Assembly: GCF_003334405.1 (NCBI RefSeq)
Contig: NZ_QOWM01000003.1
Strand: one strand, 5' to 3'
From: Escherichia coli
GTDB lineage: Bacteria > Pseudomonadota > Gammaproteobacteria > Enterobacterales > Enterobacteriaceae
DNA length: 64,000 bases
Position 1 is the first letter of the stretch. The number at the start of each line of letters is the position of its first letter. Below the pieces are notes generated by a model. It had not been told where the DNA came from and made no database searches. It worked only from the letters and a program-made list of their open reading frames with translations. A program made the translations under genes and the position numbers. This document shows, piece after piece, positions 35,326 through 37,409 of this stretch.

Positions 35326-35659
35326 ATACAGCGAACTCCATTGGTTTAGTTGGATATTTACTGTGCTGGACAAAAACGGTTTGCGGGGAAATCTTAGTTA
35401 AGTAGAATGACTGCGGGTGCTTGAGGCTATCTGCCTCGGGCATGGACACCAACGGCAGATAGAGAAAAGCCCCAGTTAACATTACGCGTCCTGCAAGACG
35501 CTTAACATTAATCTGAGGCCAATTTCATGCTAGACACATGTAGGTTAGCCTCTTACGTGCCGAAAGGCACGGAGAAGCAGGCTATTGTTAACACCAAGCT
35601 GTAATGTCCCCTTTGAACCATTCTAAAATGTCCCCAGACAATTCTCTGGGGGATTTTTC

Positions 35660-36973
35660 ATGATCAAAGAGACTGTTACGATGAGTCATAAGGAACTCCA
35701 CCGACTTCAGATTATTCAGGAACAAGCTGCGGCACGCATTGGCATTTCTATTCGGCAGGTTAAACGTCTGGTGCAACGGTATAGAAATGAAGGGCCTTCT
35801 GGTCTGGTTTCCCACCGACGTGGAAAGCGTCCTAATAATTCCTTTTCTACTGAATTCAGAGCAACAGTAATTTCACTCCTCAAAGGCCGTTACGCTGATT
35901 TTGGACCTACGTTTGCGTGCGAAAAATTGCGCGAGATACACGGTTTATCTTTATCCGTTGAAACTCTCAGAAAGTGGATGATAGAAGAGGGGTTATGGCG
36001 TGAACGCCGTCGTAAAATTGCCCGTATATATCAACGCCGCATGCGACGACCATCTTACGGTGAACTGATCCAGATTGATGGCTCACCTCATGACTGGTTT
36101 GAAAATCGAGGCCCCAGATGTACACTGATCGTTTTCATTGATGATGCCACCAGTGCGTTGATGGCGTTGCGTTTTGTGCCTGCTGAAACAACCCGGGCTT
36201 ACATGGAAACCCTCCGGGGTTACCTTAATGATCATGGCGTACCGCTCGCTCTCTACTCTGATAGACACAGTATATTCAGGGTAAATAACCCAGAGCGGGA
36301 AGGTGAGCTGACCCAGTTCACTCGTGCGATAAAGACACTGGGCATCGAGCCAATCCATGCCAACAGCCCGCAGGCAAAAGGGCGGGTAGAGCGCGCCAAT
36401 CAGACACTACAGGACAGGCTGGTCAAAGAAATGCGGCTTCAGAATATCAGTGATATTGAAACAGCAAATGCATGGTTGCCGACCTTTATTGAAGCCTATA
36501 ACAACCGGTTCGCTACGTCGCCTCGTACTACTGATAATGCTCATCTTGATGTGCACCATTCTGAAGAGGAACTGGGTTATATCTTCAGCCTACAGGCGAA
36601 GCGCGTTCTGTCTAAAAATCTCACTTTCCAGTACAAAAGCAGTGCGTTTCAGGTACGCAGTGAGGGCCGGGGATATCGACTTAGGCATTCGGTTGTTACT
36701 GTATGCGAGAACTTTGACGGTGAAATTAACGTTCTGTATGACGGGAAAGCGCTGGGCTGGGAAAAGTATGTTGATGGCCCGGAGCCTATACCACTGGATG
36801 ATGAAAAGAGTGTCCATGAACGAGTGGATAATGCCCGTATTGATTTACGCTCAAAATACTATGTTAAACCTAAAGCTGACCATCCCTGGCTTACGCGCCG
36901 AACGCAAAGTCATCAGCAAGTTAAGCCCCCGAAGTTACCTAAAAAGAAGCCTGATCCCGATAAAAAAGATTGA
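35660..36973 (+). CDS. DDE transposase with N-terminal HTH and rve integrase-core domain, ISNCY-family-like
   Basis: 437-aa ORF; N-terminus MSHKELHRLQIIQEQAAARIGISIRQVKRLVQRYRNEGPSGL typical of the IS1202/ISKpn21 group; catalytic-core region IQIDGSPHDWFE ... LYSDRHSIF; element ends not identified. Confidence 0.65.
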   Translation: MIKETVTMSHKELHRLQIIQEQAAARIGISIRQVKRLVQRYRNEGPSGLVSHRRGKRPNNSFSTEFRATVISLLKGRYADFGPTFACEKLREIHGLSLSVETLRKWMIEEGLWRERRRKIARIYQRRMRRPSYGELIQIDGSPHDWFENRGPRCTLIVFIDDATSALMALRFVPAETTRAYMETLRGYLNDHGVPLALYSDRHSIFRVNNPEREGELTQFTRAIKTLGIEPIHANSPQAKGRVERANQTLQDRLVKEMRLQNISDIETANAWLPTFIEAYNNRFATSPRTTDNAHLDVHHSEEELGYIFSLQAKRVLSKNLTFQYKSSAFQVRSEGRGYRLRHSVVTVCENFDGEINVLYDGKALGWEKYVDGPEPIPLDDEKSVHERVDNARIDLRSKYYVKPKADHPWLTRRTQSHQQVKPPKLPKKKPDPDKKD

Positions 36974-37409
36974 AACCAAGATCGATTCGGTTGAGTGCAT
37001 ATCCATTCATAGGGTAGATTCTTAAGTCGCGTTTCTGGTGTTCATTTTCGGGTGGTTTGTTACTTGTTTTACCGGGGATATGCCAGAAACGCGCTGAGTC
37101 AGTCTGGGCGGTGCGCGTAATGAGGCGTTATGGTAAATAGCCTATGCTAATGTCCGCTAAGAGCAAGAAGCGGAAGTTGGCAGTTTTGTGGACTGTCCCC
37201 ACAAAAGTGACTACAGAAATAGTTGCAATTCATAATTGATCATGGGTTGTCAGTTAAACTCGTGGCGATTTAAATAGACTAATTGGGAGTGCGTCCATTA
37301 CTTATATCTTGTAATGTTAACTATCAGAAATGATACAAAGATAATATGTCTTTAAAGAAAAGGCTGATGGCGAAAAGTGGCCCGATGAGGGCCACAATAC
37401 GGCTGTCAC

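Follow-up and report, generated by a model that had tools for sequence, protein, structure and literature searches.

Which mobile element carries the transposase gene found in a Qin-type prophage of this Escherichia coli genome, where does it end, and what did it interrupt? The first-pass annotation of the analyzed stretch of 64,000 nucleotides, here called the window, had assigned the gene to an ISNCY-type element at 35470-37330, inserted in the place of the prophage repressor and cro genes. Downstream lies hokD, a gene that lacks a sok/mok leader and is co-transcribed with relBE. By comparing the window with its relatives, we find that the region 35586-38859 is very probably a single transposon of the IS1202 family, of an ISEsa1-like lineage, inserted whole at the start of a hok gene. 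The support for this reading is comparative throughout.

Ends and architecture of the element

The annotation of a 437-aa DDE transposase with HTH and rve domains was confirmed. The uninterrupted reading frame matches the NCBIfam profile NF033594 'ISNCY family transposase' with 456.4 bits (cut-off 250; residues 14-368 against positions 7-365 of 368), and Pfam returns N-terminal HTH_32/29/28/23 domains together with rve_3 (E 8.6e-5) and a weak rve match. Its assignment to a mobile element of the ISNCY/IS1202 type is equally sound, given the NF033594 match and the lack of the element in insertion-free relatives. The catalytic residues are D140, D201 and E244, with a DDE spacing of 61/43 compared to 61/44 in TnpAjo2, and Q251 occupies position E+7; a DDE triad with Q rather than K/R seven residues past the E is the signature of the IS1202 family (PMC10132070). 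A 446-aa plasmid transposase of the 'ISEsa1 family' is identical to the window protein save for a 27-bp in-frame deletion in the window copy, which lacks nine residues (ESINRHITQ) of the first HTH. Because of this loss, the window copy is probably immobile. The final 49 codons of the gene correspond to ydfW/intK in the annotation of K-12, where a remnant is found.

Comparison with an insertion-free prophage, which the first-pass annotation had proposed, defined both ends and the target duplication. In strain MEI1-1023 (L006), the DUF977 gene, the hok leader and hokD are contiguous: positions 4610-5256 correspond to 34939-35585 of the window and positions 5241-5504 to 38859-39123, the overlap being the duplicated 15-16 bp. 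The insertion measures 3,274 bp (Table 1) and thus replaces the shorter range annotated before, which had left flxA, ydfV and relBE out of the unit. The duplicated sequence is present once in the empty site and runs from the hok Shine-Dalgarno sequence through the AT of the hokD start codon.

The two terminal inverted repeats match at 21 of 28 positions and have outer ends 5'-TGT...ACA-3' (TGTTAAC... in IRL and ...GTTGACA in IRR), like the imperfect repeats of 22-29 bp that end IS1202-family elements. ATGTC-type repeats recur at offsets 17 and 41/42 of both ends, and also in diverged relatives; as in the rest of the family, the inner portion of the repeat is copied a second time near each end. 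The earlier remark that convincing terminal inverted repeats are lacking is correct for 35470-37330, since the right end is located 1.5 kb past that range, at 38859. Duplications in the lineage are 15 bp long at three sites and 16 bp at two, at the lower edge of the IS1202 subgroup with long duplications (16-28 bp, as opposed to 3-5 bp in the other subgroup). The strict definition of an IS (1.3-1.75 kb, with a transposase gene alone) does not apply to this element, which carries passenger genes and measures 3,274 bp in the window and 2,575-12,843 bp elsewhere; it is better called a transposon or a transporter IS of the IS1202 family.

Table 1. Features of the element and of its insertion site, in window coordinates
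Feature	Position	Strand	Details
Orphaned hok mRNA leader / sok region	35415..35585	+	Rfam RF01794 (sok)
Target-site duplication, left copy	35571..35585	.	15 bp, GGAGAAGCAGGCTAT; exact second copy at 38860-38874
IRL, left terminal inverted repeat	35586..35613	+	TGTTAACACCAAGCTGTAATGTCCCCTT; start of homology to plasmid copies in differing contexts
Second transposase-site-like repeat, left end	35626-35634
IS1202-family (ISNCY_2) DDE transposase	35660..36973	+	437 aa, uninterrupted ORF
Putative cer-like Xer recombination site	36975..37138	+	Aligns with ColE1 cer
Putative Xer core	37110-37138		GGTGCGCGTAA-TGAGGCG-TTATGGTAAAT (XerC arm, spacer, XerD arm)
Variable cargo of the window copy	37179..38146	-	Plasmid copies have different cargo between these arms
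flxA	37410-37742	-
ydfV	37945-38250	-	First 34 codons in the conserved right arm, rest in cargo
Conserved right arm	38147..38831	+	relBE promoter region, relB, relE
relB	38275-38514	+	NF008412, 133 bits, cut-off 96
relE	38514-38801	+	TIGR02385, 54.7 bits, cut-off 27.9
Second site-like repeat, right end	38810-38818
IRR, right terminal inverted repeat	38832..38859	-	...GACACTTCTGCTTTGCGTTGACA, terminal ACA
Target-site duplication, right copy	38860..38874	.	15 bp, identical to left copy
hokD, target gene	38873..39028	+	Downstream of relBE, parted from its own leader and sok

The left arm is composed of IRL, the transposase gene and the cer-like Xer site, the right arm of the relBE operon and IRR, and variable cargo lies in between, represented in the window by flxA and ydfV. 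The right arm has a RelE/StbE toxin downstream of a RelB/DinJ antitoxin, the gene order of a RelBE type II toxin-antitoxin module. This arm is 98.7-99.0% identical, with an unchanged boundary, in four plasmid elements, and the RelB and RelE proteins of Qin and of IncHI2 plasmids are identical. Cargo is exchanged at fixed arm boundaries, at about 37168-37178 and at 38147. For flxA-ydfV, arrival with the element and later arrival are indistinguishable from the data.

The putative cer-like site is 75-83% identical to small ColE1-type plasmids. Its core is retained in diverged relatives and departs from the dif-like consensus (Table 8 of PMC10132070) at one of 11 positions in each arm. Judged by its sequence, the site is of the cer type, in which the arms are 6-8 bp apart and about 180 bp of accessory DNA lies on the XerC side. 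The accessory region contains a hairpin at 37025-37095 (-30.1 kcal/mol, z -3.3; 1 of 200 shuffles folds equally well), at whose core are the inverted repeats GCGTTTCTGG (37029-37038) and CCAGAAACGC (37083-37092). This 10-bp repeat had been noted downstream of the transposase stop, where it is indeed present, with a spacer of 44 nt and not 45; it had been offered as a possible part of the right end of the element or a regulatory structure, and is not that end but the conserved hairpin of the cer-like site. The site would serve multimer or cointegrate resolution through the host XerCD. We rejected it as an insertion target, the role of dif for ISAjo2, as it is internal to the element and travels with it. 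We also rejected Xer recombination at the core as the means of swapping cargo, as arm conservation extends 30-40 bp beyond the XerD arm.

The interrupted hok/sok locus and the missing immunity genes

The left flank matches RF01794 with 104.1 bits (gathering score 59, E 6.3e-24), and the match stops exactly at the insertion point; a truncated mok-like ORF starts at 35527 within this leader. A group II intron and a tRNA-like remnant had been considered for the same flank and were dropped, as Rfam identifies a hok/sok leader. Matches of hokD to Hok-family profiles fall below the curated cut-off, and its name is taken from RefSeq records. The structured leader followed by a Hok-family ORF is nonetheless the arrangement of a hok/sok locus, contiguous in MEI1-1023, and it is this locus, downstream of replication, DUF977 and methyltransferase genes, that the element occupies, not the place of the repressor and cro genes. 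Among 5,426 E. coli genomes, the junction between leader and hokD is uninterrupted in 4,021, and about 780 genomes carry the element.

The whole unit entered the translation-initiation region of hok/sok in a Qin-type prophage through a staggered cut of 15 bp, an event that we regard as established, in the orientation that places IRL beside the hok leader and points relBE into hokD. It split the locus, stranding the leader, sok and the truncated mok-like ORF on the left and leaving hokD after relE. The relB-relE-hokD ('relBEF') arrangement arose from this insertion.

As annotated before, no cI-like or cro-like ORF is evident near the transposase within the window, and this absence speaks for the first-pass reading that the IS had replaced or deleted the immunity region (dicA/dicC). 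E. coli 042 and phage PhiR42_1, however, bear the identical insertion, and about 4 kb upstream of it both retain an intact dicA (cI-like) and dicC (cro-like). Between 29280 and 41000, the window is 99.8-99.96% identical to E. coli 042 apart from one 4,611-bp deletion, which is separate from the element (junction at 33391-33400, with a 10-bp overlap, 2.2 kb to its left). This junction is common to 82 genomes only, compared to about 780 with the element. These alignments refute a loss of immunity through the IS, to which we give practically no credence.

Plasmid relatives and competing origins

Copies in other contexts were found on plasmids. In IncHI2 plasmids (L008, L009) the element measures 6,093 bp, its cargo is ISEsa2, a cytochrome b and a CDF transporter, and its duplication, GGAGAAGAAGGCCAT, lies in a different hok gene. 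A plasmid of Klebsiella sp. P1927 (L010) has a copy of 4,661 bp with the duplication GGAGAAAAAGGCTAT in a third hok, and in pMS7884B (L011) a copy of 12,843 bp carries the metal-resistance genes ncr and chr (nickel/chromate); its IRR abuts a fourth hok, and its left side has no matching duplication. Citrobacter relatives show 16-bp duplications. The flanks of the window and L008 copies share about 78% identity in the leader and 58% in the hok coding sequence, as compared with 98.7% in the right arm. As predicted, the reconstructed IncHI2 empty site (500 bp) is uninterrupted in other plasmids at 100% identity, with 454 records in which a single continuous match spans at least 80% of it. Distant relatives (45-54% at the amino acid level) in Castellaniella and Chlamydiae are compact IS elements, with the same ...TTTGCGTTGACA end as the window IRR directly past the transposase gene.

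Other copies are less complete. The copy of pKpQIL-type plasmids appears truncated, because about 20 kb of neighbouring DNA yielded neither right arm nor IRR; in pOU7519 and a Raoultella plasmid only rearranged right arms are present, beside IS26/ISSen3, and these are uninformative on duplications. At three plasmid loci Rfam returned no match at gathering thresholds, because the leaders there are truncated by other IS insertions. Two or three insertions (L016, L026, L012) are in non-hok DNA, and hok genes are favoured rather than obligatory targets. Plasmid databases are redundant, and the truly independent hok insertions number about 6-7, not hundreds.

Two other origins deserve consideration. 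The window could hold a simple copy of ISEsa1 of about 1.6 kb, from 35586 to about 37178 at the hok start, beside a separate flxA-ydfV-relBE segment, the right end of the IS having decayed. Homology to pKpQIL-type plasmids does end at 37178, and the 1,593 bp of the left arm plus the missing 27 bp come close to the listed 1,609 bp. Near 37178, however, there is no inverted repeat: the best local alignment is weak, and a search for a right end returned only the motif TAATGTCC in direct orientation, reached by 38 of 2,000 shuffles. Moreover, the empty site gives a length of 3,274 bp with the duplication flanking the entire span, the two-site IRR is located at 38859, and at three or more other sites a single duplication encloses both the relBE arm and the transposase arm. 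A short copy is thus disfavoured, and we consider it quite unlikely.

Somewhat less likely still is that a plasmid supplied relBE to hokD as a bare promoter-plus-toxin-antitoxin module, through illegitimate or homologous recombination, next to an unrelated transposase gene. Recombination from a plasmid is the explanation put forward in the literature (Ramisetty & Santhosh 2016, as referred to by PMC6379469 and PMC5120126); in the parts of this literature on which we draw, relBE is of plasmid origin and integrated into an ancestral longer hokD/mok frame, with which the shared RelB and RelE of Qin and IncHI2 plasmids agree. But the edges of the insertion are the IRL of the transposase on the left and a matching IRR on the right, and two empty sites were recovered (MEI1-1023 and IncHI2). 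At three sites, moreover, the duplication changes along with the local hok gene, a pattern that recombinational spread would fail to create.

For this transposon, we envisage that the TnsB-like transposase would bind the two repeats of each end and favour hok start regions, and that the element would replace the hok/sok addiction function of a plasmid or prophage with its own relBE. We tentatively propose, with confidence slightly short of even, an Enterobacterales lineage of IS1202-family 'hok hunters'. Its members would use a 15-16-bp stagger to enter, in one orientation, the SD-ATG of type I toxin genes in plasmids and prophages, silencing that addiction system and supplying both a type II one (relBE; in Citrobacter, TacAT) and a cer-like site that resolves cointegrates or multimers via XerCD. 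They would ferry exchangeable cargo, including metal resistance; the ISEsa1 of ISfinder would be the left arm only, and K-12 relBEF a relic of one of these insertions.

A literature search found no paper describing the transposon unit, and to our knowledge no defined transposon, with ends and duplication, had been named as the cause of the hokD disruption. The transposon provides a mechanism, with ends, duplication and empty site, by which the textbook relB-relE-hokD operon arose, and explains the K-12 pseudogenes ydfW/intK and ydfX. An IS reported without target duplication is recast as a cargo-carrying transposon with duplications of 15-16 bp, and a second kind of site preference is added to a family already known to hunt dif sites. 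On IncF and IncHI2 resistance plasmids, transporters and nickel/chromate resistance genes ride on this same vehicle, and the annotation of such resistance regions therefore depends on where it truly begins and ends. The exchange of one addiction module for another suggests a way in which mobile elements compete.

Comparison with known systems

ISEsa1, of the IS1202 group of ISNCY (the proposed IS1202 family), has a transposase lineage in common with the window element, and in RefSeq the 446-aa plasmid protein, WP_004196353, goes under the name 'IS1202-like element ISEsa1 family transposase'. It is listed as an IS of 1,609 bp with a protein of 439 aa, 15/22 terminal inverted repeats and no target duplication (PMC10132070, Table 7). 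We base the comparison on the RefSeq family name and on the listed sizes of element and protein: the window left arm is of about the listed 1,609 bp, and both have imperfect TGT/ACA inverted repeats. In contrast to the one-gene ISEsa1, the window lineage reaches 2.6-12.8 kb and has a cer-like site, cargo, a toxin-antitoxin module and 15-16-bp duplications. The ISfinder entry may represent just the left arm, and its lack of a duplication would then be explained; alternatively, there may be an autonomous form that is truly short.

ISAjo2-type 'dif hunters' and ISKpn21/ISSen13 likewise use a lone TnsB-like transposase without helper proteins, insert in a specific orientation by a short conserved plasmid site, and have two transposase sites per end. 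However, they make 3-5-bp duplications at XerC/D dif-like targets, whereas the window lineage makes 15-16-bp duplications and prefers the hok SD-ATG; the Xer-type site, a target for ISAjo2-type elements, is internal here. The transporter IS tISKpn21, tISKpn65 and tISRel10 also belong to the IS1202 family and carry passenger DNA between the transposase gene and the right end. Their passenger is one extra ORF of unknown function, whereas the window lineage has a cer-like site, relBE or TacAT and kilobases of exchangeable cargo.

ColE1 cer has a XerD arm identical to that of the window site, likewise a XerC arm and a 7-bp spacer, and its accessory region, including a long hairpin, aligns with about 130 bp preceding the window core. 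Unlike cer, the window site lies inside a transposon and, in the window, on a chromosome, where multimer resolution has no obvious role. As to the target, Pedersen and Gerdes are said to have described in 1999 that chromosomal hok loci of K-12 are inactivated by IS elements, and IS150/IS186 reportedly lie near other hok genes. In those loci hok is disrupted by mobile elements, as hokD is here.

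One insertion at a hok start codon in a Qin-type prophage

The E. coli prophage in the window is lambdoid and of the Qin type. Approximately 780 complete genomes of this species contain the same DNA, located between an rspB-adjacent integrase and flxA-ydfV-relB-relE-hokD. The first-pass annotation had placed a transposase here and advised comparison with a prophage free of it. The transposase ORF is indeed present (35660-36973, + strand, 437 aa, no interruption); it scores 456 bits against the NCBIfam ISNCY_2 transposase model (cut-off 250) and has Pfam matches to HTH domains at its N-terminus and to the rve_3 integrase core. 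In a related, insertion-free prophage of MEI1-1023 (L006), the DUF977 gene, the hok leader and hokD are contiguous. Positions 4610-5256 of this locus correspond to window 34939-35585, and 5241-5504 to 38859-39123. The window therefore holds one insertion of 3,274 bp, at 35586-38859. The uninterrupted leader-hokD junction is the common state, found in 4,021 of 5,426 genomes.

The ends of the element are well defined. Its left end (TGTTAACACC, at 35586) is where DNA homology begins to plasmid copies with other left flanks, and its right end (...GACACTTCTGCTTTGCGTTGACA) matches the left one at 21 of 28 positions, with TGT...ACA termini. A perfect 15-bp direct repeat, GGAGAAGCAGGCTAT, lies on both sides (35571-35585 and 38860-38874). 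An ATGTC-type repeat is present twice at each end, at offsets 17 and 41/42; diverged relatives and compact chlamydial IS elements have this layout too. Immediately left of the element, 171 bp (35415-35585, + strand) match the Rfam sok family with 104 bits (E 6e-24), and the match stops exactly at the junction; this segment is a hok mRNA leader. The element begins after the AT of the expected hok start codon.

The transposase belongs to a known group. The 'IS1202-like element ISEsa1 family transposase', encoded on many plasmids of Klebsiella and Enterobacter, is 97.9% identical to it over residues 1-421. The catalytic residues in the window are D140, D201 and E244, with Q251 at E+7. TGT...ACA ends, two repeats per end and Q at E+7 are features of the IS1202 family (PMC10132070). 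The window protein equals WP_004196353 except for the in-frame loss of nine residues (ESINRHITQ), through a 27-bp deletion between ATTCAGGA and ACTCAGGA repeats inside the first HTH. Because of this deletion the window copy is probably inactive, consistent with a median of one copy (identity at least 99%) per E. coli genome.

The first-pass annotation had also proposed that the insertion replaced or deleted the prophage immunity region. The identical insertion is present both in E. coli 042 and in PhiR42_1, a deposited phage, and in each it lies downstream of ydfD, dicB, ydfABC, dicA, dicC, a ydaT-like gene and a replication gene. Window 29280-41000 is 99.8-99.96% identical to 042 except for one 4,611-bp deletion (L037 4122-8731), whose junction at 33391-33400, with a 10-bp overlap, is common to only 82 of 5,426 genomes. 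This deletion took the 5' end of the recE-like exonuclease gene, ydfD, dicB, ydfC/B/A, dicA, dicC, the ydaT-like gene, the replication gene and the 5' end of the DUF977 gene. The insertion thus coexists with dicA/dicC and the loss is a separate event, so the transposon neither replaced nor deleted the immunity region.

In PhiR42_1 (PV340562.1, host ECOR13, 48.7 kb), the element lies at 11493-14766 with 100% identity and dicA/dicC (cI/cro-like) are intact; a Qin-type phage genome that looks complete thus transports the transposon. Other records differ in their surroundings. E. coli W5-6 has ISEc22 (IS66 family) between the DUF7167 gene and the hok leader (L001 5116-7083), an insertion that the window lacks. 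A 19.7-kb 'plasmid' of E. coli E16EC0562 (CP088536.1), typed as non-mobilizable, contains this Qin segment too (transposon, relBE, hokD, rem); the record may represent a piece of prophage that was excised or misassembled. A 5.5-kb contig labelled 'MAG: Collinsella sp.' (JAIJJM010000167.1) is 99.5-100% identical to the window hok leader, transposon and hokD; this actinobacterial bin is almost certainly contaminated with E. coli.

Independent insertions, conserved arms and variable cargo

Copies of the element have conserved arms and differ in cargo, and hok start regions are used repeatedly, always in the same orientation.

Copies of the element and its relatives, with their cargo and targets
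Copy	Position	Length	Cargo	Target and duplication
Window, Qin prophage		3,274 bp	flxA, ydfV	hokD; GGAGAAGCAGGCTAT
IncHI2 plasmids (L008, L009)		6,093 bp	ISEsa2, cytochrome b, CDF transporter	different hok; GGAGAAGAAGGCCAT
Klebsiella sp. P1927 plasmid (L010)		4,661 bp	ISEc52 and ~1 kb partly common with the IncHI2 copy	third hok; GGAGAAAAAGGCTAT
pMS7884B (L011)		12,843 bp	ncrYCBA, chrBA, other genes	IRR adjoins fourth hok; left flank rearranged, without duplication
Citrobacter sp. 18056 (L015)	9927-19610	9,684 bp	~7 kb, metabolic/regulatory	SD-ATG of 30-aa hydrophobic peptide gene; 16 bp, CTAAGGCGGTTATATG
Citrobacter sp. 18056 (L016)	9928-20071	10,144 bp		non-hok; 16 bp, CATGACCGCGCAACCG
Gut Enterobacteriaceae genome (L026)		2,575 bp (degraded)		non-hok; 15 bp, 13/15 match

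All plasmid copies have a left arm that ends at ~37168-37178 and a right arm that begins at 38147 (window coordinates); the right arm is 98.7-99.0% identical among copies. The flanks of the window and IncHI2 copies are only ~78% (leader) and ~58% (hok CDS) identical, and the insertions are therefore independent rather than a single event spread through recombination. The reconstructed empty site of the IncHI2 copy is found uninterrupted, with 100% identity, in other plasmids. In Kluyvera and Pseudocitrobacter contigs, the hok leader runs up to ...ATG and is followed directly by IRL. At their right end, Citrobacter relatives (Tnp 82% aa identity) have a TacA (PF08681)/GNAT toxin-antitoxin pair where the window element has relBE. 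In distant relatives (45-54% aa), which are compact IS elements, tnp is followed immediately by the same end sequence.

The single Citrobacter sp. 18056 genome harbors two relatives of 9.7-10.1 kb, and the peptide gene hit by one of them (MAFKEALLLAVVTSVVGPILVALIRHFFRF) is possibly another type I toxin. In the Leclercia adecarboxylata chromosome (L021 9288-10995), the relBE arm with IRR adjoins nucleotide 387 of a second transposase gene copy, an arrangement that suggests one element inserted into another.

These data are compatible with a mechanism in which a TnsB-like DDE transposase would bind two sites per end and cut the target with a 15-16-bp stagger. After insertion, hok would no longer be joined to its promoter, the mok frame or the Sok target, and hokD would therefore be expressed only by read-through from relBE; relBE-hokD co-transcription is reported in literature cited in PMC5120126. 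The relBE of the element could then take over the stability function of the hok/sok locus of the host replicon.

A cer-like Xer site in the left arm

The inverted repeat GCGTTTCTGG/CCAGAAACGC noticed in the first-pass annotation exists (37029-37038 and 37083-37092), and its suggested role in the right end does not hold, the real end being at 38859. It forms the stem of a 22-bp hairpin (-30.1 kcal/mol, z -3.3) within a segment, 36975-37138, that aligns with ColE1 cer; small ColE1-type plasmids have unannotated regions with 75-83% identity to this segment. The counterpart of the stem in ColE1 cer is the repeat GCGCGATCGCG.../...GATCGCGC, and both sides show changes; this repeat forms the stem of the cer-encoded Rcd RNA. 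The core at 37110-37138 reads GGTGCGCGTAA-TGAGGCG-TTATGGTAAAT; its XerD arm is that of ColE1 cer, and both arms have at most one mismatch from dif-like sites tabulated in PMC10132070. Since diverged elements keep the core, at variable distance from tnp, the site is a maintained part of the element. It may serve multimer or cointegrate resolution through host XerCD. A TAATGTCC motif at 37148-37155, 10 bp beyond the XerD arm, resembles the left-end transposase-site repeats in the same orientation and is kept in several elements; the likeness is statistically weak (38 of 2,000 shuffles).

The K-12 remnant and previous descriptions

K-12 has undergone a different deletion of 4,799 bp, from the ydaT-like gene into tnp at window 36789, which removes IRL and the hok leader. 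The K-12 locus (L038 2723-3185) has ydfW/intK, which consists of the final 49 codons of the transposase ORF (window 36824-36973), and ydfX, a 5' fragment of the ydaT-like gene; the deletion joins the two. As RefSeq keeps ydfW, the intact 437-codon ORF is marked as a C-terminally truncated pseudogene. The ydfV ORF (37945-38250, - strand) extends across position 38147, where variable cargo meets the conserved relBE arm; because its first 34 codons occur in plasmid elements with other cargo, ydfV may be a fusion artefact and not a gene.

The Hall laboratory lists ISEsa1 as 1,609 bp, with no target-site duplication 'when multiple examples were examined' (PMC10132070). Given these features and the 1,593 bp plus missing 27 bp of the left arm of the window element, we infer that the listed ISEsa1 comprises no more than the left arm. 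Ramisetty and colleagues, as cited in PMC6379469 and PMC5120126, noted that plasmid-derived relBE integrated into a longer ancestral hokD frame; the texts consulted mention no transposon, ends or duplication. A 2026 preprint surveying hok loci recorded nearby IS genes and not the present element, and a search of the literature on the IS1202 family, ISEsa1, hok target-site duplications and a hokD-relBE transposon gave no description of it, although journals outside this search could have one. The transposase family is known; the architecture, duplication length and target preference of this variant appear to be new, and the element offers a concrete origin for the classic relBE-hokD operon of E. 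coli.
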